From the IMG/VR virus record IMGVR_UViG_3300046791_000454, positions 17,497-81,496 of that record: 64,000 bases of DNA, one strand, 5' to 3'. Below are positions 2,910 to 50,256 of the stretch, piece by piece. The stretch comes from a virus. Positions within the stretch are counted from its first letter, which is position 1; the number at the start of each line of letters is the position of its first letter. A program made the translations under genes and the position numbers. Under the pieces are notes generated by a model. It saw only the letters and a program-made list of their open reading frames with translations. It made no database searches and was not told the DNA's origin.

Positions 2910-3743
2910 TCAGACAGTGGCGAGACCGTCGCGCCGGCCTTCAGCGCCCCCGTTCGTCGGCTTGATGTTCTTGCCGCCCGCAACCTCGTTCAGCGTGCGG
3001 AGCAGGTCGAGCCGCAGGAACTGCAAGTGCAGGTTGCCGTTCCGGAAGCACTTGAATCGGAAGTAGCGCGTCTCTCCGCGGCCCTTGTCGCCGCTGGCCT
3101 TGATCGCGTCGGAAAGCTCGCCATGATAGCTCTTGGCCACCGTGCCGCGACCGTCGAGCATGCTGAACACGTTGTCGAGCGCCACAAACTCAGCCTCGCG
3201 CCCGTAGCGGACGTGGTAGCCGGGCGACCACGCGCGCTCGACGCGGTGCTCCAGCACGACCTTCGGCCCGATCTCGGTTCGGCTGTTGGTCTTGTACGTG
3301 TCGCGCCATGGGCGCAGGAAGCCGAAGACTTCACGCACGGCCTCGGCCATCATGACCGGCGCCGCCTCGAGGTAGAACTCCGCGAAGTCCGCCACGTTCT
3401 CGACCGTGAGCGGCGGCAGGTCTCCGCGCTCCAGCCGCTCGTCCAGTTCCTTCGCGCGCTTGACGGACAGCATGCGGCGAATTTCGAGGCGCTCGGCAAC
3501 CGCGCCCCACGCGTTACGGGCCATGCGCTCGACGGCCGCATCGGCGTCCCAGTCGCAACCGGTCCGGTGCCTGCTCGCCTCGACGGAGATGTGCCCTCGG
3601 CGCGAGCTGTCGCCGTAGAGCGCGCCGAGACGCTCCTCGACGGCGAGGACGATGGCGAACGCGCGGCGGACGTCGCGCTCTGCTTCCTGGAAGGCCGCCA
3701 CAAGCTCGTGGACGGCGGCGTGACGGGCGAGGTCGGTGCTCAC
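2910..3743 (-). CDS. DUF4942 domain protein
   Basis: YKTN..IGPKVVL, LDNVFSMLDG, YFRFKCFRNGNLHLQFLRLDLLRTLNEVAG; GTGA-coupled start. Confidence 0.8.
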   Translation of the reverse strand: MSTDLARHAAVHELVAAFQEAERDVRRAFAIVLAVEERLGALYGDSSRRGHISVEASRHRTGCDWDADAAVERMARNAWGAVAERLEIRRMLSVKRAKELDERLERGDLPPLTVENVADFAEFYLEAAPVMMAEAVREVFGFLRPWRDTYKTNSRTEIGPKVVLEHRVERAWSPGYHVRYGREAEFVALDNVFSMLDGRGTVAKSYHGELSDAIKASGDKGRGETRYFRFKCFRNGNLHLQFLRLDLLRTLNEVAGGKNIKPTNGGAEGRRDGLATV

Positions 3744-3949
3744 GAGTGCACCCGCTCCGCTTCCTCGGCCAACGCGGCCGCTTGGCGCAGAATCGACGCC
3801 ACCTCGCGCCACGCGTTGTATCGACGAGGCATGTCGCTATCCAAGTCCGCCTGGACCTCGACGGACGCGAGCGCGGTGTCAATGAGCAGTTGCGGGCCCA
3901 CCTCGGTCGCCAGGTTCAGGAACGCGGTCAGCTTCTCGTCGGGCAGCAT
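3740..3949 (-). CDS. hypothetical protein (69 aa)
   Basis: GGAGG SD before ATG; coupled to DUF4942 gene. Confidence 0.75.
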   Translation of the reverse strand: MLPDEKLTAFLNLATEVGPQLLIDTALASVEVQADLDSDMPRRYNAWREVASILRQAAALAEEAERVHS

Positions 3950-3967
3950 GGGGAACCTCCAACGCCC

Positions 3968-3997
3968 AAAGCCCCGGCCCCTTTCGGGGTGCGGGGC
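3968..3997 (-). terminator. hairpin GCCCCGCACCCC-GAAA-GGGGCCGGGGC plus UUU (weak terminator or boxB-like)
   Basis: Follows the first gene of the leftward operon. Confidence 0.55.
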
Positions 3998-4015
3998 CGA
4001 GCGATCCGGCTGCGT

Positions 4016-4546
4016 TCAGGCAATCGCCTTGCGGACCGTGGCGAGCGCCTTGGCACGGCCCTTCGCCCCGGCGTTCTTCGCGGACCACTCGGCCCAACCG
4101 AGGAGCGTCTCACCCTTCTGCGCCATGAAGGCGTTCGGGTGGGGCTGCGTGGCAAGCTTTGCGCGCGCCGTCTCGTCGGCAAGAAGCGCGGCGAGGTCGG
4201 CGAGCTTCGCGGACGCGCGGGCCATGGTGGCCACCTTGCGGCGCTTGGCGAGGTCGCGGTCCACGCGGGCGACGAGGGCGGCGTCGACCTTGCGGATGCA
4301 GTCGGAGCCGACGTGGAAGCGCTTGCCGTCCGCGCTCTCGACGTTGCAGAGGACGATGATGGCCATGCCGCAGTATTCGCAGGTGCCGCCGGGCTGCGTG
4401 ACGACGCAGAGGCCGCCGGGAAGGCGCTCCGTCACGACCATGCCGTACTCGCGGTCCTGCTGACCGAGGCCGATGTAGCGGAAGGGGGCCTTGCCGAGGC
4501 CGGCGAGTTCGAAGGGGTGGACTGCGGAGGGGGTCGTCGTGTTCAT
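4016..4546 (-). CDS. Zn-binding phage protein (CEYCG...HVGSDC)
   Basis: CxxC plus VGSDC motif, basic helical C-terminus, good codon bias. Confidence 0.8.
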   Translation of the reverse strand: MNTTTPSAVHPFELAGLGKAPFRYIGLGQQDREYGMVVTERLPGGLCVVTQPGGTCEYCGMAIIVLCNVESADGKRFHVGSDCIRKVDAALVARVDRDLAKRRKVATMARASAKLADLAALLADETARAKLATQPHPNAFMAQKGETLLGWAEWSAKNAGAKGRAKALATVRKAIA

Positions 4547-4557
4547 GCCTTCCCTCT

Positions 4558-4573
4558 AGCGAGGACCATGCCA
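4558..4573 (-). promoter_or_regulatory. putative sigma54 (-24/-12) promoter TGGCATGGTCCTCGCT
   Basis: GG-N10-GC spacing with TGGCA; -12 C lies 13 nt before ATG 4546. Confidence 0.55.
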
Positions 4574-4593
4574 CGATATGACGCACGTGGCAT
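4568..4593. promoter_or_regulatory. inverted repeat ATGCCACG-N10-CGTGGCAT (operator-like)
   Basis: Perfect 8-bp arms between divergent genes, overlapping the -24 element. Confidence 0.6.
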
Positions 4594-4625
4594 CGCGGCG
4601 CGCCCCATGCTACGGAGCGGAACCC

Positions 4626-4832
4626 ATGACCAAGAGCCGCCCGCCGCCCATTCCCGACCAGATTCGCACCGCACGCACCGCTGCGCACCTTTCCCAGGCT
4701 CAGCTTGCAGAAAGCACGGGCCTTCAGCAGTCGGCCATTGCCCGCTATGAGACCGGCGAACGCGATCCGAACCTGCGAACGCTCCGGATTCTGGCCGGAG
4801 CACTGAACACGGTGTGGCTCGTTTACCCGTAG
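4626..4832 (+). CDS. XRE/Cro-CI family HTH regulator
   Basis: IRTARTAAHLSQAQLAESTGLQQSAIARYETGERDPNLRTLRILAGAL is a canonical HTH_3. Confidence 0.92.
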   Translation: MTKSRPPPIPDQIRTARTAAHLSQAQLAESTGLQQSAIARYETGERDPNLRTLRILAGALNTVWLVYP

Positions 4833-4864
4833 ATTTCGCGCGCTACGCATCCAAGTCATAGCCC

Positions 4865-4961
4865 ATGACGCCGGTGTCATCGTGGCCCATGCGTCGGTAA
4901 ACATAGACTAATATGCGCTTTCTGAGGCACGCTGTATCAACTCCGATGCCGCCGGTGTCAT
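4865..4961. promoter_or_regulatory. two near-identical 16-bp palindromes ATGMCGCCGGTGTCAT (4865-4880, 4946-4961)
   Basis: 15/16 identical, 81 bp apart, in non-coding DNA. Confidence 0.65.
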
Positions 4962-5010
4962 ACTGAACGGTCCTCCACACGGCGGCGGCGGGGCCTCTAA
5001 TGCCGGTAAT

Positions 5011-5038
5011 CAGCCAATGTCTCCAGCGGCATTGGCTG
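5011..5038. promoter_or_regulatory. inverted repeat CAGCCAATG-N10-CATTGGCTG
   Basis: Perfect 9-bp arms overlapping the -24 element of the rightward promoter. Confidence 0.55.
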
Positions 5039-5052
5039 GCACACCCCGTGCA
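5037..5052 (+). promoter_or_regulatory. putative sigma54 promoter TGGCACACCCCGTGCA
   Basis: Close match to TGGCAC-N5-TTGCW; ATG 5066 is 15 nt after the -12 C and has no SD. Confidence 0.65.
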
Positions 5053-5065
5053 ATGCCTCTCTGAC

Positions 5066-5236
5066 ATGAAGACGCTGACGAAGCAGATGAGCCTGGTGGG
5101 GATGACGGTTCGCTCGACGACCTGCGACATCGCTGGCACCATCGAGTACGTGACCAAGGACGGCTGGGCCGGCATCCGGGACGCCTCGGGCCGCCTGGAC
5201 GAGGAGAAGCTCAGCCGACTGGAGCAGGTGACCTGA
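5066..5236 (+). CDS. small protein (56 aa), possibly SH3/KOW-like
   Basis: VGMTVRS...GTIEYV..DGWAGIR pattern; GC3 bias starts at this ATG. Confidence 0.7.
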   Translation: MKTLTKQMSLVGMTVRSTTCDIAGTIEYVTKDGWAGIRDASGRLDEEKLSRLEQVT

Positions 5237-5244
5237 GGGCCCCC

Positions 5245-5276
5245 GGCCCGGTTCCCGAAAAGGGGGCCGGGCCTTT
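5245..5276 (+). terminator. hairpin GGCCCGGTTCCC-GAAAA-GGGGGCCGGGCC plus UUU
   Basis: 12-bp stem right after the first gene of the rightward operon. Confidence 0.6.
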
Positions 5277-5293
5277 CGAGTCAGGAGACCAAG

Positions 5294-5485
5294 ATGACCT
5301 TACCGAAGCTCCACCACCTCTTCCGCCGCCCCGAGCAGTGCCTCCCGGCTAACAGCAATTCGGTGCCGGCGTTCTGCTCGGTCGAGTCGATCCCCGGCTG
5401 GCTCTACACCCAGGCGGCTGCCCGCGTCAGCGCGCGCCGCGCCCGCTTCTCGTCCGTGGCCTTCAACGCGAAGGTGTCATCGTGA
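5294..5485 (+). CDS. hypothetical protein
   Basis: AGGAG SD; coupled to next ORF. Confidence 0.7.
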   Translation: MTLPKLHHLFRRPEQCLPANSNSVPAFCSVESIPGWLYTQAAARVSARRARFSSVAFNAKVSS

Positions 5486-5628
5486 GCCGCGCGGCCCGCA
5501 TCGCCGTGGTCGTGCTGATTGAGGCCGAGCTTGCGGCGGCAGACGACATGCCGGAAGAAGACTACGCCGCGGCACGGGCGTTGCTAAAGGAATTGGAAGA
5601 GACGAGCGAGACGGAGGAAGAGCGGTGA
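5482..5628 (+). CDS. small acidic protein (48 aa), absent from ORF track
   Basis: GTGA overlaps at both ends; MSRAARIAVVVLIEAELAAADDMPEEDYAAARALLKELEETSETEEER. Confidence 0.7.
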   Translation: MSRAARIAVVVLIEAELAAADDMPEEDYAAARALLKELEETSETEEER

Positions 5629-5807
5629 ACCCCGACACAATGCTACGGATGACCGATGACGGCGACACGTTCGAGTGCACGTGGGCGAGCTTCGCGGAAG
5701 CGAACGCGGATACGCCGAGCGTGGTTGCCGAGGTTGCAGCGCTGGCAGTCGGTGAGCGCGTGACGCTGGCCGGAGGCGGACTTGTGGAAGTGGAGCGCGT
5801 GTCGTGA
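5625..5807 (+). CDS. hypothetical protein
   Basis: GTGA coupling, GGAGG SD. Confidence 0.7.
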   Translation: MNPDTMLRMTDDGDTFECTWASFAEANADTPSVVAEVAALAVGERVTLAGGGLVEVERVS

Positions 5808-6256
5808 GCTACTGGAACGGTTTTAAGAACGCGCGTGTGAAGACGCCGGTCGCGACCTGGACTCGCTGGGACGTCTCTTGGTCCCCCTGGGGCCGCAACC
5901 CCGTCCGAGGCACGAACTACGTCCAGCTTGAGACGCTAGACGCGGTTGTCATCGGCCTCTACGACGTGAACGCGGATGGCGTACGCGTCGGGCGTCGACC
6001 TCGGCAGGTCGAGGTCTACGCCAAGACCAAGCGGAGTCCGAAGTGGCTCGGCTATGACACCAGCGCGCGACTCGCGGCGCTTTTCTACAACGTGCTTGCG
6101 CGTGAGGCAGGCTCGGACGACTACGGGCGGGTCGTCCGCTGGGGCGTCGGCATTGCCCCGAAGCACTACGACGACAGCAAGGCCATTCTCGCCTTCATCG
6201 CCAAGTTGGACGCCGCCGAGCGAGCGGCCAAGGAGCAGACCCGTGAAGCCGCTTAG
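5804..6256 (+). CDS. hypothetical protein
   Basis: GTGA coupling, codon bias. Confidence 0.75.
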   Translation: MSYWNGFKNARVKTPVATWTRWDVSWSPWGRNPVRGTNYVQLETLDAVVIGLYDVNADGVRVGRRPRQVEVYAKTKRSPKWLGYDTSARLAALFYNVLAREAGSDDYGRVVRWGVGIAPKHYDDSKAILAFIAKLDAAERAAKEQTREAA

Positions 6257-6443
6257 CATCGAGTACACCTTCCACGGCGGCCCCAACGAGGACGTGCTCG
6301 TGGACCGCAAGCGGTGCCGCTCGGACGCCGCTGCCCGCCAGCACGCCGCGAAGCTGGCCGACCGCCTTGGCGGCTACATCTGCGTCAGTCGCAACGGGCG
6401 CCGCATCGTGAGCGTGAACGAGAACTGGAGCGAGCCGTCATGA
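6243..6443 (+). CDS. hypothetical protein
   Basis: GTG after AGGAG; coupled to next gene. Confidence 0.6.
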   Translation: MKPLSIEYTFHGGPNEDVLVDRKRCRSDAAARQHAAKLADRLGGYICVSRNGRRIVSVNENWSEPS

Positions 6444-6784
6444 CCAAGACCAACCGAATCCCCGCCCGCCTCGACGCGGACCGCGCCGCGACGCCGAGGG
6501 CGCGCCTCATCCAGCGCCAACAGGTCCGCGACGGAGACACCATCTCGGCGACGAACGCGACGCACTACGAGGCGGAGGACGGGAGCCGGGTAGCGCTGGC
6601 GGATGCTCTCGAGGCGGCCCGCTCAAGGCTCGCCTACGCCGACGACGCCTGGCCTGGGTCTCCGAGGGAGGTGCGCGCGGCACAGGCAGACGTGGACCGG
6701 CTGGAGGCCGAAGTGGAGGCGTTGCGCAAAGCGGCGCTGCCCGAGCCCCGCGACGGCGTGGACGACGAGCCCGGAGACGTCTGA
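6440..6784 (+). CDS. hypothetical protein with C-terminal coiled coil
   Basis: ATGA coupling. Confidence 0.7.
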   Translation: MTKTNRIPARLDADRAATPRARLIQRQQVRDGDTISATNATHYEAEDGSRVALADALEAARSRLAYADDAWPGSPREVRAAQADVDRLEAEVEALRKAALPEPRDGVDDEPGDV

Positions 6785-14614: not shown

Positions 14615-15291
14615 TTGCCGGCGTCCTTCGCGCGCTTCGCCGCGAGCCTGCGGTGCACGTCTGCCATGCTCGGGCGCCATGGCGCTGCCGTGCGCATGCC
14701 CCCGTCGCCGACGACCGTGCTGCCGAGCTTGCTGCTGTGCTCCGAGACGAGCTCGGCGATGATTGACTCCAACTCTGTGACGCCGACGCAAAGACCCGCG
14801 AGCTCTGGAGCCGCCAAGAGCCGCAAGCCCTCCTCGCAGACCGGCTCTGCCGCGTTGGCGATGTCCGCGGCCGTCTTGCGCTCGCCGGCAGTGCACGCAG
14901 CCCACGTGAGCCCAAGCCCGCCCCATACGGCGAGCAGGCCCGTTGCCCACGCGATGCGCGCCACATCGCTCGGCGGCGGGGCCCTCGGCGACTTCGGGGT
15001 CGGAGGCCCGTCGCCCGCGGGGGCGCTTGGCGGCGCCTTGGCGGCCTTCACGTTCTCATGCATGCCCGAGCCAGCCAGGCCTGCGACGAGGCCCGTCAGG
15101 GTCGACATGAGCGCCGCCTTCGGGCCCTCGCCCATGCCGAGGCCGTGAGCGACACCGATGGCGATGCCGCCCGCCGTCGAAAGGACCGGAAGCAGGCGAT
15201 CGGAGACCTTGCCCTTGAGGCTACGGCAGACGAGGTAGAGGGCCACGCAGGCCACAAGCAGAACGGAGGGATCTTTCAGAATATCGAGCAT
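14611..15291 (-). CDS. holin-like membrane protein with extended C-terminus
   Basis: Three N-terminal TM segments ending GLVAGLAGSGMHE; a later hydrophobic segment followed by Cys. Confidence 0.7.
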   Translation of the reverse strand: MLDILKDPSVLLVACVALYLVCRSLKGKVSDRLLPVLSTAGGIAIGVAHGLGMGEGPKAALMSTLTGLVAGLAGSGMHENVKAAKAPPSAPAGDGPPTPKSPRAPPPSDVARIAWATGLLAVWGGLGLTWAACTAGERKTAADIANAAEPVCEEGLRLLAAPELAGLCVGVTELESIIAELVSEHSSKLGSTVVGDGGMRTAAPWRPSMADVHRRLAAKRAKDAGK

Positions 15292-15298
15292 GGGGTCC

Positions 15299-16093
15299 TC
15301 AGTGGGGAGCAGCGGCCGGAGCCGCTGGAGCAGTGGGCAGCGGCTGAGCAGACACCCCGAGCCGGGCGGCAACGTAGCCAACGGCCAGCGTGACGACCGC
15401 GACGACGACGAGCCGCACGAGGTCGCGCCGCCAGGTCGACGCCGATTCCTTCGAGCCGTGGCTGAGCGTGAGCTCCGTCTTCTTGAGTTCGACGTCCGCA
15501 ATCGATGCGCGCGTTGCAACGTCGACAGTGAGCTTGCGGTTCTCGGCGGCCAGCACTTCGACGGCGTGCTCCGCCGACATGATCTCGCGCTGCTTCGTGT
15601 CAACCACGTCGTGCCGAATCAGTCCGACCTCGCGCTCGGTCTGCTTCTGCCGCTCGTCCAGTGTGGCCATGAGGACGGTCATATCGTTCCAAGACTTCCG
15701 AACGGCGTCGACGTCGGCGAGCGTGACGGAGCGCTCGCCATCCATCCGCCTCACGCGCGCGGCCACGTCCTGGAGCGCAATGCGCTGATCGCGAAACTCC
15801 TTCGCGATCTTGAGACTCAGCTCGGCGTGCTTCGAGTCCCAGAGCTCAAGTACGGCCTTGATGGCCGATAACTCGTTCGCGATGGTCAGTCCAAAGCTAC
15901 CAAGCTCGCCCTCGATTGCGCTCAGCTTGCGGCCGTTGTCGACACCACGCTGCAGGCCCTCGATGAGGCCGTGGCCGATGACGAGCAGCGCCTCGGCCGT
16001 CTTCTCGTCCGCGAAGTCCTCGGCCTTCCACGCGAGGACTGTTGCGCGGAGCGAGTCCGCCTCGTAGCCGTTGCCGTTATCGTTAGCGGACAT
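15299..16093 (-). CDS. coiled-coil protein with C-terminal TM helix (lysis-associated)
   Basis: Heptad-rich; LVVVAVVTLAVGYVA. Confidence 0.75.
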   Translation of the reverse strand: MSANDNGNGYEADSLRATVLAWKAEDFADEKTAEALLVIGHGLIEGLQRGVDNGRKLSAIEGELGSFGLTIANELSAIKAVLELWDSKHAELSLKIAKEFRDQRIALQDVAARVRRMDGERSVTLADVDAVRKSWNDMTVLMATLDERQKQTEREVGLIRHDVVDTKQREIMSAEHAVEVLAAENRKLTVDVATRASIADVELKKTELTLSHGSKESASTWRRDLVRLVVVAVVTLAVGYVAARLGVSAQPLPTAPAAPAAAPH

Positions 16094-16096
16094 GCG

Positions 16097-18412
16097 CTAC
16101 CCAGCTTTCCAGTCGTAGGTGGACGTGTCTCCAGACGTACCCTTCACAGAGAACGAGTTGGCGGCCTTCGCGGTGAGCACCGGTTGCGCGCCCTGCGTCC
16201 CGCCGAGCGTACGGAACGATAGCGCGACGGGATCGTCGGCGAGGAAGTATCCAGCGACGGCGACGGGGGTGGAGCCCGTGAGCGCGACTTGGCCGAAGTT
16301 CGCTCTACTCGCAGCGTCGATGCTCCACGGAGTCAGGCACGACGACAGGTCAACATCATCGCCACGACGGATGAGGCACGCTACGGCAGCCGTACCCACA
16401 CCGATATCGATCGCGCCAATCGTGCGCACGCGTCGCAGAGAAAGCGTCGCGACACCCGAGACGCCGACCAACACTTTCACCCCCGTGTGGCTTCCGACTT
16501 TTTCGCCCACGTACTCGTCTAGGCTCACCTTGCCGGCGGTCAGTACGGCGCTCCAGAAGTTGTCTGTTGTGGTCGCGGTATACGCCTGAGCGATCGACAA
16601 GCTCGAGTCGGCAGTGATGGCCCAAGGTCCCGCACCGTCGCGCGACTCGTACCCAACCACGTGGACGTTGGCGCCTGCGCCATTTACGTTGATGCCGTAC
16701 TGCGCGCAGCGGTCGGCGGTGAGTCCGTGGGCGATCAGGTGACCTCCCGCCTCGACCCCAAGGCCCGCGTTACCACAGTCGCTTACGGTGATGTCGGTGA
16801 GCTTCGCTCCAACACACGCAACGCCGTCCCATACGACGAAGGCCGCGCCGGTGCCGCCAGATCGGGAGCCATTGAATCGCTCAATGTCGATCCCGGCGCC
16901 GCCGTAGACGATGAGCCCGCTCGTAGTGGAATCAAGCGCGGAGCAGTCGACGACTGCGCCATTACGGCATGCTTCCGTGTCATCCACCGAACTAGGGCCC
17001 AACGAGATGCCGAGATAGCTTGCCGTCGCGTCAACATGGGCGACATGAAATTGACGCGACGCCGATACAAGAACCCCACCCCCCTGACCATTGCTTCCAA
17101 CGCGCCGGACGCGCGAACGAAAGATGCCCGACCTCACCTGGTTCTCTAGCGCAAGGCCGCCGAATGCGATGCCGTCTCCGTCTACCTCCATGTCATCGAA
17201 GATGTTGTCGCGTCCGGCGATGTCGAACGAGCATACAATAGAGGTGAAAAAGCCGGACTCATTCGTCACCCGCCACCCAGTGACGCGGCAACGTTGCGCG
17301 GCCGAAATTTCGAACGCCCGATCGCCAGTGCCAGTGATGACCGCACCATTGCCAAACAGTCGGATGTCATGCGGCGTTTGAACGGCCGTGACCGTTTTCC
17401 CTACGGCGAAGGTGAACTCAACAACATCGTCGAGGGTCAATGTGGCTCCTGTCTTGGACAGGATCCGAAAGGTTTGCCCTACGCTGGTCGCCCCAACTAC
17501 ACGAATCCAGTCACCGACTGAGAACACGTCATCGACACATACCAGCGTGCGCGTTCCCAATGCTGGCTGAGTTGCGATGGTAGTCGCCGGACCAAGCGCA
17601 ATGGCTATCGCGTAGAACACACATTGCGAAGCACCTGGACCTGGCGGCAGCGACGACACGATCCGAGTGCCAGGCCCCTGCGCTTCGATGGTCACGCCGC
17701 TAGCGTTGGACAGGTCGCAGACCGTATCCCACTGCCACGTGCCGGACAGCATGACGACCTTGCCCGCGTAACCGGCCGCGATTGCAGCGGCCTGCACACG
17801 AGGAGCGTTGTCCGTGCTCGAGAGCGGCGCGAGGTACGCGATCGTGACTGGCACGACGATGGCTGTGCCGCCTAGCGACAGGTCGAAGGCCTCGACGCCT
17901 GGTGGCGTGTCGACGATGCAGTTGACCGTTAGCGTCACACCCGCTGCCGGCCGCAGCGCGCTGCCAGACGTCACCCGGAGCGTGTCGCCCATGGTGCCGA
18001 GGCTGGTGTTCGTTGAGATGGTGGCGCCGCCAGGTTGAGACACGACAACGCCATGTGCGTAGAGCGCGGCGAAGGCCTTGGAGAGGCCCGCCTCTCCGCT
18101 TCCGAACCACGCCGCCTGGACGACGCGAGGGGCATTCGGCCCGAAGCGGACGGTGCCGATGCCGTCGAAGATTTGCCACGGGCCGGCGTCGATGTCGCCG
18201 TCGATGGTCGTCGTCGCGCCCGTCGACGTGGTGATGGTTGCGCCGCGCTGGAAGCGCAGGCGCGTACTCGCACTGCCGATGCTCGCCGAGCTGAGGAACA
18301 GGAATGGCCCGCCCTCGAGCATCAGCTCGCTCGTGGAGCGCAGCGCGTTGGTCACCCGTGCAACGTCGGAGTTGCCCGACGGTTGGAGCGTGCGCGGGAG
18401 CGGGATGGTCAT
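16097..18412 (-). CDS. tailspike / right-handed beta-helix (depolymerase-like)
   Basis: DNAPRVQAAA entry motif, PbH1-like repeats, fibre-type C-terminal beta domain. Confidence 0.85.
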   Translation of the reverse strand: MTIPLPRTLQPSGNSDVARVTNALRSTSELMLEGGPFLFLSSASIGSASTRLRFQRGATITTSTGATTTIDGDIDAGPWQIFDGIGTVRFGPNAPRVVQAAWFGSGEAGLSKAFAALYAHGVVVSQPGGATISTNTSLGTMGDTLRVTSGSALRPAAGVTLTVNCIVDTPPGVEAFDLSLGGTAIVVPVTIAYLAPLSSTDNAPRVQAAAIAAGYAGKVVMLSGTWQWDTVCDLSNASGVTIEAQGPGTRIVSSLPPGPGASQCVFYAIAIALGPATTIATQPALGTRTLVCVDDVFSVGDWIRVVGATSVGQTFRILSKTGATLTLDDVVEFTFAVGKTVTAVQTPHDIRLFGNGAVITGTGDRAFEISAAQRCRVTGWRVTNESGFFTSIVCSFDIAGRDNIFDDMEVDGDGIAFGGLALENQVRSGIFRSRVRRVGSNGQGGGVLVSASRQFHVAHVDATASYLGISLGPSSVDDTEACRNGAVVDCSALDSTTSGLIVYGGAGIDIERFNGSRSGGTGAAFVVWDGVACVGAKLTDITVSDCGNAGLGVEAGGHLIAHGLTADRCAQYGINVNGAGANVHVVGYESRDGAGPWAITADSSLSIAQAYTATTTDNFWSAVLTAGKVSLDEYVGEKVGSHTGVKVLVGVSGVATLSLRRVRTIGAIDIGVGTAAVACLIRRGDDVDLSSCLTPWSIDAASRANFGQVALTGSTPVAVAGYFLADDPVALSFRTLGGTQGAQPVLTAKAANSFSVKGTSGDTSTYDWKAG

Positions 18413-23045: not shown

Positions 23046-23548
23046 CAGAAGATGTAGAGCGCGAAGTTCGTATCCGTCGCCGTGCCCGCCGAGTTCCACG
23101 TGCGCACGCGAACGCCGTTCGTCGCGGCCGTTGTCGTGATGATGCGCGCCGAAGTGGACGCTGCCGTAGCGATTGAATTGGCCACGGGCAGCGGCACAGT
23201 CGGCGGCGACGACTGCGCTGGCCACGTAATCGTGGTGTCGCCGTTGCCGTTGTCGGTCACCGTGAACGTGCCAAAGTTCACGAGCGATCCGGCGGCACTG
23301 AGCTGCGTCAGCGCCGGCGCACCGGCCGTGAACTCCACGAACAGAACAGCTGCGTGGATGACCTTGGCGATTGCGCTCGCCTGCAAGGTCATCTGGTTGA
23401 GCGGAGCCGCGCTCGGCTCCGACGGGTTCGGGTTCGGGTCGTCGTCCTCGAGCTGGGCGCCGCCGAGGTCGTCGAGCGACGGGCGCCGAGGGCCGCCGTC
23501 TCCGGCGTCGAGGTCCCAGGAGAGCGTGTCGAGTGCGTCGGTAGCCAT
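23045..23548 (-). CDS. baseplate/fibre-associated protein (paralog C)
   Basis: RRPSLDDL, FTVTDNGNGDTTITWP. Confidence 0.75.
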   Translation of the reverse strand: MATDALDTLSWDLDAGDGGPRRPSLDDLGGAQLEDDDPNPNPSEPSAAPLNQMTLQASAIAKVIHAAVLFVEFTAGAPALTQLSAAGSLVNFGTFTVTDNGNGDTTITWPAQSSPPTVPLPVANSIATAASTSARIITTTAATNGVRVRTWNSAGTATDTNFALYIF

Positions 23549-23551
23549 GGG

Positions 23552-24124
23552 TCAGAGCGCGAATGCGAACGTGAATGGGACGCGGATGCCCGCCGGCGCG
23601 GTCGAGAACGTCAGCACGCGGACACCGATCGTTCCCGGGCCAACGTTGATCGCGCCCCCGTAGGTGATGCTCGCCGCGGTCGCGCCGTGGACGCCGAGCA
23701 TGGGCGGGATCGCGAGGCCCGCGCCAGACGGCAGTGCAGCACTGGGCCACGCGACCGCCACGTCGCCGGCAGCGTTCTCGACCACCGTGAAGGGCGCGTC
23801 AGAGCCGACGACGGGGGACGAACCGGGGACCCGTGGATTGAGGGCGTCGAGCCAGGCGCCGGGCGTCATAGCGCGCGCTACGTATGGCGTTGTGCCGTCG
23901 TACTCGACGTCAACGACGAGTGAGAAACAGACGCGGCCGAAGGCTGCCCACTGGCCCGCGACTTGGTTGGCCCAGTTGGCAGTGCAGAACTTGCCGGTGC
24001 CTGGGTTCGTGGGGTCGGTCGGGGGCGGATAGCGCGTATCATTCTGATAGTCGACGCCATTGATGAAGTCGGCGAGAACCGGGCGCCGCGGTGGCACTTC
24101 GTCCCAAGTGACGACGGTGCTCAT
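23552..24124 (-). CDS. baseplate/fibre-associated protein (paralog D)
   Basis: RRPVLADF, FTVVENAAGDVAVAWP. Confidence 0.75.
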   Translation of the reverse strand: MSTVVTWDEVPPRRPVLADFINGVDYQNDTRYPPPTDPTNPGTGKFCTANWANQVAGQWAAFGRVCFSLVVDVEYDGTTPYVARAMTPGAWLDALNPRVPGSSPVVGSDAPFTVVENAAGDVAVAWPSAALPSGAGLAIPPMLGVHGATAASITYGGAINVGPGTIGVRVLTFSTAPAGIRVPFTFAFAL

Positions 24125-45653: not shown

Positions 45654-47222
45654 TCAGTCCGTCTGCGATCTGTACGTCTGCAACTTGGGCGGTGCTCCAG
45701 GGGCCCGATTGAGCTTCTTCGCCGCTCTAGCGATTGCGAGCACCGCCGCCATCAGAATGTCGCCGTGCGCCTGGCCCGCCTTGGGGAGCTGAATCTGAAT
45801 GACACCGCCGGGACCGGCCCGGCTCTTGGCGCCGCGAAACTGGTTCAAGAGGCGCGGGTCGTCGGGGAGCTCCAGAAGTCCCTCGGCCGCGAGCCGCCGC
45901 ACGATCGTGAACTCCTCAGCCTTGAACGCCGCCGTCGGCTGCACCTCGTCGTAGACCACCTCGTAGCTGTGGGCCTTGCGCCACTTCGCGAGCTCGTCGT
46001 GGGCCATGTCGACGTAGTGCATGTCGCCACGCATCGCCCGAGCGCGGAAGCTCCTGCACGTCGAGGCGAACTGCCCAATCACCGCGCTCGGCACCAGCGG
46101 CTTGCCGGGCAGCGGCACAAGCTCCTCGTAGTGGGCGAGCTGCACCTTGCCGCCCTCGACGCGCGCAAGGGCCAGCGCCGAGGAGTTCTTGCGAAAGCCG
46201 AGATCGACGCCCGCCGCGTGCTCCGCACCGTTCGGGGGTAAGAGCTGACGACCTCGAACCACGGCGATGTCGAGCGCGGTCTCCGGGAAGAATGCCGACG
46301 AGTTGATGTCGAGCGGGATGGCGTCGTATTCGCGCTCGGCCGTGTGCGGGTCCTTGGCGCGCTCGGCCTCGACGGTCGCCGCCATCTCGGGCGACGTGTT
46401 CATGCTGCACGTGTCGGAGTGGAACGAGAACTCGCGGCCCGGCTTGCCGAACGCGGCCTCGAAGTTGATGTAGAAGTAGCCCTCGCGCGACCAGGGCGAG
46501 CTCGGCATGTAGAGCTGCGCACCCGGCAGGAGCCGCGTCGTCGCCGCCTTCACCTGGTCGCCAAGGTTCGCCTGCTTGCCGTCGCCGTCGAAGAAGTCGG
46601 CCTCGTCGAGAACGCACCCGGAGAGCCACGTGGAACGCAGGTTCGTCCCGCCTGGCGACGCGGCGAGGAGGACGACCTTGACCAGGTAGCCGTCGGGGCG
46701 GCGCAGCGTGAACGACTCCGCGCCGGGCTCGTCGACCAGGAGCGTCCTCAGCAGGTCGCTCTCGGTCATGCTCCCGACCAAGTGGCTGAACGCGGCACCC
46801 GTCGTGTCGAGCCGAGCGGAGACGATGGGCGCGCGCACGAGCTCACCCTTGCGCACGCCGGACATGTCGCAGACGAGCGAGGACCAGAGCAGCCCGCCCA
46901 TGGCGGAGATCAAGCTCTTGCCGGCCCGGACGCCGGTGCGGAGGTAGACGACCCGCGGCTTGCGGGGCGGGAAGGCATCGACGCCGAAGTGGAACGTCAT
47001 CTCCTCGGGCGTCAGGAGCCCGCCGATGGGCTTGCCTTCCAGCGCGCGGATCAAGGCGAGCTGCGGGGCTGAGGGGGCGAAGGCGCCCATGTCGGTGCCC
47101 GTGATGAGGCGCTCTAGAGACAGGCTCGGGCCCAGCATGTCGGTGGCCTGCTTCGGCGACGGCGCCGTGATGATGCCGATCGCCTTGTCGAGGAACGCGT
47201 CCCGGGTCGCCGGAGATGTCAC
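45654..47222 (-). CDS. terL: terminase large subunit
   Basis: Walker A GVRAGKS, Walker B VLDEADF, SSPW, REYDA, nuclease GVDLG and HGD. Confidence 0.9.
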   Translation of the reverse strand: MTSPATRDAFLDKAIGIITAPSPKQATDMLGPSLSLERLITGTDMGAFAPSAPQLALIRALEGKPIGGLLTPEEMTFHFGVDAFPPRKPRVVYLRTGVRAGKSLISAMGGLLWSSLVCDMSGVRKGELVRAPIVSARLDTTGAAFSHLVGSMTESDLLRTLLVDEPGAESFTLRRPDGYLVKVVLLAASPGGTNLRSTWLSGCVLDEADFFDGDGKQANLGDQVKAATTRLLPGAQLYMPSSPWSREGYFYINFEAAFGKPGREFSFHSDTCSMNTSPEMAATVEAERAKDPHTAEREYDAIPLDINSSAFFPETALDIAVVRGRQLLPPNGAEHAAGVDLGFRKNSSALALARVEGGKVQLAHYEELVPLPGKPLVPSAVIGQFASTCRSFRARAMRGDMHYVDMAHDELAKWRKAHSYEVVYDEVQPTAAFKAEEFTIVRRLAAEGLLELPDDPRLLNQFRGAKSRAGPGGVIQIQLPKAGQAHGDILMAAVLAIARAAKKLNRAPGAPPKLQTYRSQTD

Positions 47223-49670: not shown

Positions 49671-49954
49671 TTGAGCACCGCGCCCTCTGGCACCTCGTCC
49701 TCGTCTCCGCTTGTTGGCTCCTCGCTCACCGCCACACTCGCTTGCAAGTCGAGCCTCCACCCACCGCGCCCGCCGCCCCAGCGAGCGTCAAGCTGCTGCC
49801 AGCCAGAGGCCCGCTCGAAGACCATTGTGACCTTCCGGCGTGGGTCTTGGCGGAACCAGCAGGCCAGCGTGACCAGCGGGCCGTCGGTCGACAAGATGGT
49901 GCCGAACATCTCGCCGCCGCTGTTCGAGTGCCTGATGCGAAAGGCGAGCGTCAC
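49667..49954 (-). CDS. hypothetical protein
   Basis: GTGA coupling. Confidence 0.6.
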   Translation of the reverse strand: MTLAFRIRHSNSGGEMFGTILSTDGPLVTLACWFRQDPRRKVTMVFERASGWQQLDARWGGGRGGWRLDLQASVAVSEEPTSGDEDEVPEGAVLN

Positions 49955-50256
49955 GACTGGAACCTCCCGGCCCACGCTCTCCGCCCGAAGGTGAGCGTGA
50001 CGACGGCGACGATGAGCCCACGCCACCACGGCGACGCCATCTCGAGGCCCCAGGCCAAGAAGAACCAGGCGCCGGTGGCGACCAGACCGGACAGGATGCT
50101 CACGCCGAGGACGTGCCCGGCGGTCACGGCGGACGGGACGCGCCCCATGGCCCACGTCGTGCCGTTGCAGAACGGGCACGGCCGCTCGCCGTACTTGTCG
50201 CGGCCCCGGCCCTTGCAGAGCTTGCAGGGTTCGTAGCCTTTCAGGACCACAGTCAT
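49951..50256 (-). CDS. DnaJ-type Zn-finger plus 2 TM membrane protein
   Basis: CKLCKGRG...CPFCNGT followed by two hydrophobic helices. Confidence 0.7.
   Translation of the reverse strand: MTVVLKGYEPCKLCKGRGRDKYGERPCPFCNGTTWAMGRVPSAVTAGHVLGVSILSGLVATGAWFFLAWGLEMASPWWRGLIVAVVTLTFGRRAWAGRFQS

Follow-up and report, generated by a model that had tools for sequence, protein, structure and literature searches.

Candidate sigma-54-type promoters next to the start codons of two diverging gene blocks in an uncultured soil phage and some of its relatives

Introduction

Promoters read by sigma-54 are a textbook class, of which glnAp2 with its NtrC sites and nifH with its NifA sites are examples, and sigma-54 cannot open DNA without an ATP-driven activator. 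The early promoters of phages, on the other hand, are taken to be of the sigma-70 type or to be read by phage polymerases. Because of the activator requirement, a phage relying on sigma-54 would tie its first transcription to a signalling protein of its host. Here, we analyse a short region (positions 4546-5066) of a 64,000-nucleotide piece of DNA from an uncultured phage of soil that has a contractile tail and a Mu-type portal; we call this piece the window (positions 17,497 to 81,496 of IMG/VR record IMGVR_UViG_3300046791_000454). Two blocks of genes diverge from this region, the sole gene between them encodes a helix-turn-helix (HTH) protein of the XRE/HTH_3 type, and each block is preceded by an element of the -24/-12 type a few nucleotides before its first start codon.

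The closest bacterial systems are sigma-54 promoters with activator sites upstream, among them one from Myxococcus xanthus. In the sections of PMC12754779 that deal with them, the sigma-54 consensus is given as yTGGCACGrnnnTTGCw, sigma-54 is described as vital for this organism, activator sites are dyads more than 50 bp upstream, and PkatB/PexR serves as an example, PkatB having three 5-n6-5 dyads. The same sections define leaderless mRNAs as those with no more than 5 nt from start site to start codon and suggest them for a myxobacterial sigma-A promoter (PMC12754779). Among phages, the closest case is Pseudomonas phage YuA (NC_010116), three fragments of which are annotated '-24/-12 consensus sequence', with promoter-trap activity in the record notes, and which is said, in a passage of PMC10914365 that cites Ceyssens et al. 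(2008), to use sigma-54-type promoters. This is the only precedent that our literature search (supplementary files apart) returned, and it is weak at the sequence level; the same search yielded no account of sigma-54-type leaderless promoters in phages. The YuA fragments lie in the head/tail gene region and have an ordinary leader behind them, and their best GG-N10-GC matches agree with the consensus at 8/12 and 6/12 positions, the third fragment having none.

Two elements at a fixed distance from two start codons

The left element (TGGCATGGTCCTCGCT, 4558-4573, minus strand) has its GG at 4572-4571 and its GC at 4560-4559, and its -12 C (4559) is followed 13 nt downstream by the ATG at 4546 that opens the leftward block. 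The right element (TGGCACACCCCGTGCA, 5037-5052, plus strand) has its -12 C at 5051, 15 nt before the ATG at 5066 that opens the rightward block, with no Shine-Dalgarno sequence between. Both match the consensus TGGCAC-N5-TTGCW at 10/12 positions, and in both GG and GC are exactly 10 nt apart. Inspection of the sequence therefore bears out the two GG-N10-GC elements of a preliminary description of this DNA, which had placed them 13-15 nt before the first ATG of each block.

These distances depend on the choice of start codons. For the leftward gene, an in-frame TAG 12 nt before 4546 rules out a longer reading frame, and the N-termini of 45 relatives (alignment A1) agree with this start. For the rightward gene, there is an alternative in-frame ATG at 5000, and 5066 is the likely start because the G+C content at third codon positions (GC3) falls upstream of it, from 0.95 in 5066-5233 to 0.68 in 5000-5065.

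Taking sequence, position and recurrence in relatives together, we consider it probable, with some way to go to certainty, that both elements function as promoters of the sigma-54 (-24/-12) class. As in leaderless genes, the promoter core would keep a short, constant distance to the ATG, and a Shine-Dalgarno sequence is missing from the right arm; unlike in known leaderless genes, which are described with -10-type promoters, that core would be of the sigma-54 type. The likeness to PkatB extends to the sigma-54 consensus, the exact GG-N10-GC spacing and the upstream dyads, the right promoter of the window having three of the 5-N6-5 kind described for PkatB in those sections of PMC12754779. What sets the window apart from bacterial sigma-54 promoters is that its elements are in a phage, come directly before start codons (which would leave no leader) and have no activator gene nearby.

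How far do these matches exceed chance? In the whole 81,496-bp record (linear, ~67% G+C), 13 sites match the consensus at 10/12 positions or more, and neither element is therefore unique by score. Among these 13, the left and right elements alone have the ATG of a high-GC3 open reading frame 13-15 nt past the C. When the record is scored with a matrix derived from a different phage (60 sites of the 198-kb phage described below) and compared with a null of 20 Markov genomes, the right element receives 19.5 bits, which is rank 1 in the record and above the maximum of 18.9 bits reached across all 20 null genomes. Scores single out the right element only, and it is the comparison with relatives that, as far as sequence can do so, settles the case for both.

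Two other matches should be mentioned. The first, CGGCACGGGCGTTGCT (5570-5585, plus strand), agrees with the consensus at 11/12 positions but scores 9.7 bits with the class matrix, which is within the noise, and we have rejected it as a third promoter; it sits in the gap before the GTG at 5625 and overlaps a terminator-like hairpin on the opposite strand (5581-5564). The second, TGGCATGCCCCGGGCA, is at 15850-15865 (plus strand) of the record, 1,647 bases before the window; at 15.6 bits it is the second-best site of the record, it has GGCA at -12, and a start codon is missing from the usual distance.

The same element before orthologous genes

The first leftward gene (4016-4546, minus strand) encodes a protein of 176 amino acids (aa) whose phage family is widespread and has no name; 112 relatives match it at E<=1e-3, which made it possible to ask what lies upstream of its orthologues. 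From 163 loci encoding a homologue, the gene could be placed in 128 non-redundant ones, ten of which have the element (at least 9/12 positions) within 150 nt upstream. In seven of these (L035, L047, L139, L147, L157, L190 and L193; GC 0.62-0.67), the -12 C is 13-15 nt before an in-frame ATG, as in the window, and the orthologous sites match 10-12 of the 12 consensus positions. L047 has the perfect consensus TGGCACGGTCCTTGCT in place of TGGCATGGTCCTCGCT, both departures of the window's left element being 'corrected'. When nine upstream regions are aligned, which needs no gap between the boxes, only TGGC, GC and ATG are invariant, the pattern that would be expected if both boxes and their distance to the ATG were under selection. 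The preliminary description had proposed conservation in related phages as a check, and the outcome is positive, since seven other contigs have the same element at the same distance before the orthologue. Of its interpretation, the part that the comparison with relatives supports is that these are real, oriented, bipartite elements of the -24/-12 type at a fixed distance from the ATG.

A variant is seen in relatives of lower GC content (L173, L180, L212, L174 and L185; GC 0.49-0.56), in which TGGCA-N7-TTGCT is followed by GAGGTGA or GGAGG and the ATG is 25-28 nt past the -12 C. The ribosome-binding site begins ~12 nt past the C in these loci, a layout from which the likely start of transcription would be ~12 nt past the C, as for sigma-54. 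Such loci would represent the promoter class in a form with a short leader.

Two of the orthologous loci have peculiarities of their own. In L190 (1094-1131), two sigma-54-type elements stand back to back, 22 bp apart and each 14 nt before an ATG, a pair far tighter than the diverging pair of the window. In L047 (2640-2700), what resembles an extended -10 promoter for a leaderless mRNA, TGGTAGAAT, is found 6 nt upstream of the ATG of the gene that diverges from the sigma-54-type promoter, and both promoter types may thus feed leaderless genes in the group to which L047 belongs.

A wider class in other phages

L035 comes from the contig of a complete phage of 198 kb (G001), in which the element is found many times over: 84 matches to TGGCACNNNNNTTGC with at most one mismatch, versus 21 for the reversed control. 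Its 60 core sites have the consensus gTGGCACG-N4-GTGCA(A/T), and in 35 of them an ATG lies 12-17 nt past the C (14-15 nt in 29), against an expectation of ~8%. The two boxes are tightly coupled, TGGCA being in exact register in 28 of 64 TGCA-N12/13-ATG sites and at no more than one site in each of six registers shifted by 1-3 nt, as rigid spacing demands. The sites are often in diverging pairs, 245-355 bp apart, and they avoid the region between 65 and 106 kb. Together with the three sigma-70-family genes of this phage, their distribution fits a scheme in which early promoters would be read by a host factor and later ones by the phage's own sigma factors.

A 62-kb phage (G008) also has an excess (20 matches versus 3 for the control), including six perfect TTGC-type sites, and several other contigs carry multiple strict sites. 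The strict scan of IMG/VR that found the latter returned 71 stretches, of which only multi-match contigs were counted because, by a rough estimate, single matches could be due to chance; the multi-site loci that were examined had been picked by a CATG-containing pattern, and their geometry is hence partly a matter of construction. In contrast to YuA, sites of this class match 10-12 of the 12 positions, precede early-type genes with the ATG 13-15 nt away, and are found repeatedly in a group of phages. The sequence-level case for a promoter class is strong.

Streptomyces phage phiC31 has early promoters with conserved inverted-repeat operators, and the present class is similar in that it is a phage-wide, non-standard set of what would be early promoters with repeated dyad operators. 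A supposed likeness of the phiC31 promoters to sigma-54 ones had made them candidates for membership, which their sequence rules out: phiC31 has 16 matches at 9/12 positions or more, none with the geometry, and no intergenic TGGCA-N7-TGC.

The 198-kb phage has a further feature, located in L114-L123, in the form of two families of repeated intergenic modules of 250-350 bp that lie between diverging promoter pairs (for example 15257-15503, 46664-46937 and 106258-106575 for one, and 23529-23840, 49748-50064, 117611-117966 and 170647-170924 for the other). Dyads such as GTGGC-N5-GCCAC and GCCGGCAGAATTTACCGGC abound in these modules, which could be arrays of enhancers or operators, or genes for small RNAs.

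Four copies of one dyad and a Cro-sized XRE protein

Each -24 box of the window is overlapped by a perfect inverted repeat with a 10-nt spacer, as the preliminary description had it. The left repeat (ATGCCACG-N10-CGTGGCAT, 4568-4593; arms 4568-4575 and 4586-4593) has 8-bp arms that are 100% complementary, and its left arm overlaps the left -24 box by 6 nt. The right one (CAGCCAATG-N10-CATTGGCTG, 5011-5038; arms 5011-5019 and 5030-5038) has 9-bp arms, again 100% complementary, and overlaps the right -24 box by 2 nt.

Within and between these repeats lie 16-bp palindromes, of which two had been reported, and which turn out to be four copies of one dyad: O1 (ATGACGCACGTGGCAT, 4578-4593), O2 (ATGACGCCGGTGTCAT, 4865-4880), O3 (ATGCCGCCGGTGTCAT, 4946-4961) and O4 (5017-5032), the last being the core of the right inverted repeat. 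Three of the four match ATGACGCCGGTGTCAT with at most three mismatches. The pattern ATGNC-N6-GNCAT, which was defined post hoc from the sites themselves, has four matches in the 64-kb window, all within 455 bp (4578-5032), where 0.54 would be expected, and none of 100 shuffles reaches four. O1 and O4 are in mirror image, each 4 nt from its own -24 box, and if transcription starts 12 nt past the -12 C, which all dyad positions given here assume, both are centred at -38.5, while O3 and O2 are centred at -109.5 and -190.5 relative to the right start. The half-site centres are 11 bp apart in O1-O4, which suits an HTH dimer.

The gene between the promoters (4626-4832, plus strand; GGAG 8 nt upstream of its ATG) was correctly recognised from the start as encoding an XRE-type protein. 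Its 68-aa product consists of an HTH domain only (PF01381, HTH_3, residues 13-61, E 2.1e-14), is Cro-like in size and matches phage regulators in PHROG down to 8.1e-11. The four dyads probably serve this protein. The earlier division into promoter-proximal operators and enhancer-like sites in the middle is weakened, because the middle palindromes belong to the same four-copy family as the proximal ones, and one protein probably binds all four. Alternatively, O2 and O3 could be the true activator sites; they are more than 50 bp upstream of the right start and their positions would allow it, but they are of the same family as the dyads at -38.5 and stand beside the XRE gene, and their being copies of the same dyad as O1 and O4 speaks for a single binding protein. 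The window thus departs from the activator sites described in the relevant sections of PMC12754779 (more than 50 bp upstream) in that its nearest dyad is at -38.5, and from PkatB/PexR as presented there in that the gene beside the dyads encodes a 68-aa HTH protein, not an AAA+ protein.

The arrangement is reminiscent of lambda Cro/CI, with a small HTH gene between what would be diverging early promoters and several copies of one dyad, a putative operator, over or beside them. Unlike in lambda, the promoters are not of the -35/-10 type, the putative operators are upstream of the -24 box and not across -10 and -35, there is one HTH gene, and no integrase or transposase was found. As a switch between lysis and lysogeny, the divergent phage switch of the preliminary description is not established: domain and PHROG searches gave no second HTH gene such as a lambda-type immunity switch would have, and the record has no match to the tyrosine integrase (PF00589) or rve transposase (PF00665) families, an absence that is no proof because the record is 81% complete (CheckV).

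Sigma factor, activator and host

If the elements are read by sigma-54, who provides it? The preliminary description saw no activator in the window, and this can now be widened to the entire 81.5-kb record (G000; 81% complete), which has neither an AAA+ activator gene nor a sigma-54 gene. Polymerase, sigma factor and activator would hence all be the host's, as no sigma-54 or PF00158 gene was found in the phages searched (the scope of these searches is given below). The sole match over the cut-off in the activator search is a ComM/YifB-type ATPase in G010, a phage contig of 124.6 kb. This 548-aa AAA+ protein (L284, 628-2274) has an extra C-terminal region; among its best 120 relatives, 11 are named, and six of these 11 (~44% identity) are from Myxococcota (five Polyangiaceae, one Myxococcales).

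The myxobacterial link suggested earlier, on the grounds that these bacteria are rich in such activators, receives a weak hint from the relatives of this ATPase, which comes from another phage of the class, and finds none in myxophage Mx8, to which we return below. Relatives of the GH25 lysin offer a single organism name, from Actinomycetota, at 31% identity.

Points against sigma-54

Several observations weigh against the view that both elements are sigma-54 promoters, and they concern the score of the matches, their distribution among phages, the local sequence and the missing proteins. As to score, the left element has 13.2 bits, which is rank 5 in the record, and the null genomes average 2.15 sites of at least 12 bits. 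The record has no overall enrichment either, with 15 sites of at least 8 bits versus 14.35 in the null. The matrix scan that had been suggested as a measure of background therefore gives a split answer, the right site exceeding all nulls and the left having a null-like score. Similarly, equally good matches in coding DNA, which the preliminary description had named as a reason to abandon its reading, do occur to some extent: of the 13 consensus matches in the record, 11 are away from gene starts, and similar matches are found in coding DNA.

As to distribution, conservation is patchy: only 7 of 128 loci show the geometry, the element is missing from the relatives with the most similar proteins (L001-L005, 42-52% identity), and the whole contigs of five other relatives lack an excess over the control. 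The element is confined to a subgroup, which is presumably defined by host. G009 and G010 have no excess of the TTGC pattern, and Mx8 lacks the layout, having one weak intergenic match with GGCA at -12 and a start 19 nt on.

As to local sequence, many sites of the class read GCAC-N5-GTGC, which is more dyad-like than the textbook consensus, and a further or different factor could bind them. What a dyad centred at -38.5 would do at a sigma-54 promoter is not established. Immediately upstream of the left ATG is purine-rich AGAGGGAAGG, which resembles a ribosome-binding site and would be missing from a transcript starting 12 nt past the C, so that a leaderless transcript leaves it unexplained; it may serve read-through transcripts, or the true start may lie further upstream. 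Finally, no sigma-54 gene (PF04552) was found in G000, G001 or G002 (G008-G012 were not part of that search) and no PF00158 activator gene in G000-G002 or G008-G012, and the presence of rpoN in the host is assumed.

Alternative explanations

The alternative that survives best is that the element is a real promoter whose reader is not the host sigma-54 holoenzyme but a factor specified by the phage or carried in its virion, or an unusual polymerase. We regard this as unlikely, and yet it has several things to commend it: no activator gene was found in the phages searched, and no sigma-54 gene in G000-G002; a minor sigma factor that depends on activators would be heavily burdened by dozens of sites in a single phage; and purine-rich stretches between element and ATG in several phages would suit a nearer start. 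It leaves unaccounted for that sigma-54 promoters have exactly the same invariant bases and rigid GG-N10-GC spacing, that six perfect TTGC-type sites are found in G008, and that the sites are in early-type regions, to be read before phage proteins exist. The present record, moreover, has no sigma-70-family gene of its own.

One model for such a reader is a hairpin promoter like those of phage N4, since many sites read GCACG-N3-CGTGC. The hairpin promoters of the N4 virion polymerase have a stem of 5-7 bp and a 3-nt loop, and extended dyads are indeed frequent in G001, with five complementary pairs in 26 of 77 sites and four in another 21. Because so many class sites are extended dyads, the model was tested by covariation, of which there is none (positions 6/12 pair in 47 sites versus 41.4 expected, and positions 7/11 in 36 versus 35.2). 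The left site of the window (3/5 pairs) and those of L047, L157 and L190 are not dyads.

A quite improbable alternative, to our minds, is that the element serves chiefly to bind a protein, as an operator or activator box placed at a set distance from the start codon, that the true promoter is an unrecognised one of the sigma-70 type, and that the likeness to sigma-54 stems from TGGCA/TGCCA half-sites. That both -24 boxes of the window are inside or touching perfect inverted repeats would fit, as would the abundance of TGGCA-containing dyads in the intergenic modules of G001, and TGGTAGAAT of L047, 6 nt before an ATG, suggests that leaderless promoters of the sigma-70 type exist in the group. 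Against it, the element is oriented, with TGG always distal and the ATG always 13-15 nt past the C, and relatives retain the element without the inverted repeats of the window. The G001 matrix, moreover, has no conserved TANNNT-type hexamer between element and ATG, and a search for sigma-70-type promoters (-35/-10) between 4300 and 5700 gave no match.

That the two matches in the window are due to chance, with only other phages using the element, would be in keeping with the 13 equally good matches in the record (most of them off gene starts), its lack of enrichment and the null-like score of the left site, and is nevertheless very improbable, as both sites are 13-15 nt before the first ATG of the only pair of diverging blocks here and 4 nt from a copy of the same dyad, the right one exceeds all 20 null genomes, and the position of the left one is matched in seven orthologous loci.

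Neighbouring genes and hairpins

The record (G000) encodes, besides the Mu-type portal, a head protease, a tail sheath and baseplate proteins. None of the named phages is closely related: positions 3500-6500 have no blastn match among named phages, the tail sheath has only tblastn matches of at most 31% identity (in Ralstonia, Vibrio and Klebsiella phages), and scans of viral contigs with single proteins found no relatives, in contrast to profile-based scans, which did. The window has no tRNA gene that we could find, and no WhiB gene was found. Among sequencing runs, the only one found to contain the stretch is a soil DNA metagenome, possibly the source of the record; no RNA run is listed for it.

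In the 176-aa family, H10, C56, C59, C83 and a GLGxAP motif are invariant (alignment A1), the first four of which probably form a zinc site. An AlphaFold2 (AF2) model of the protein is confident (mean predicted local distance difference test score, pLDDT, 89.1) and consists of a beta domain and a helical bundle; the PDB has no fold match for this model and no solved relative, and tblastn returns Aeromonas jumbo phages only, at E ~1e-3. The leftward block goes on with a 69-aa open reading frame (3740-3949, minus strand; GC3 0.86) and a DUF4942 protein (2910-3812, minus strand; E 1.2e-33, GC3 0.86). In the rightward block, the first gene (5066-5236, plus strand; 56 aa, GC3 0.95) has no match in family and PHROG searches, and it is followed by small genes (5294-5485, 5625-5807 and 5804-6256, plus strand), none with a known family.

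Both first genes are followed by a GC-rich hairpin. Behind the leftward gene, at 3971-3998 (minus strand), a hairpin that ends in UUU and whose energy is unexceptional (z -0.78 versus shuffles) precedes GGAGG and the ATG of the next gene at 3949. Behind the rightward gene, at 5245-5273 (plus strand), a 12-bp hairpin (-30.4 kcal/mol, z -1.98) ends in UUUCG and precedes AGGAG and the ATG at 5294. The two are mirror images of each other, with GAAA and GAAAA loops, a short U run and strong ribosome-binding sites behind, and may be attenuators or processing sites. A search of Rfam over 3900-5700 returned nothing approaching the threshold of any family.

A possible mechanism and what it would mean

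In the sigma-54 mechanism that we propose for this locus, the RNA polymerase of the host with sigma-54 would bind TGGCA-N7-(T/C)GC as a closed complex, which an ATP-driven host activator would open. Transcripts would begin 12-14 nt past the -12 C, with their 5' ends 0-3 nt upstream of the two ATGs (4546 and 5066), and each block's first gene would be translated from a leaderless or nearly leaderless mRNA. At the hairpins, some transcripts would be attenuated or ended ahead of the next genes, whose ribosome-binding sites are of the ordinary kind. A dimer of the XRE protein would bind O1-O4 and, from -38.5, hinder the holoenzyme or the approach or contact of the activator, with O2 and O3 possibly adding cooperativity via looping.

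What is new here, with no description of it in the literature that we searched, is (i) the fixed distance of 13-15 nt to the ATG, (ii) the location at early-type diverging blocks, (iii) the recurrence in uncultured, GC-rich phages without an activator and, in the window, (iv) an XRE gene accompanied by mirror-image dyads at -38.5. On this basis, we put forward a broader proposal, tentatively and with considerable doubt: that a group of GC-rich soil phages, the present one included, would carry out early transcription with the sigma-54 holoenzyme of the host and leaderless mRNAs, and without an enhancer-binding protein of its own, and that the window would hold the first phage switch based on sigma-54, with a pair of promoters in mirror image that are shut by a Cro-sized XRE protein bound at -38.5.

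If this were true, these phages would either exploit an activator that is always active or induced by infection, and that needs no specific upstream site, or bring a non-AAA+ means of opening sigma-54 complexes. They would sense the physiology of their host at the very first step of infection, and sigma-54 promoters would be able to feed leaderless translation. In such a case, the phages would also be a source of compact, tightly off and precisely starting promoters for GC-rich bacteria, and the 520 bp analysed here, with a pair of promoters, a single 68-aa regulator and four operators, would be a handy test bed.

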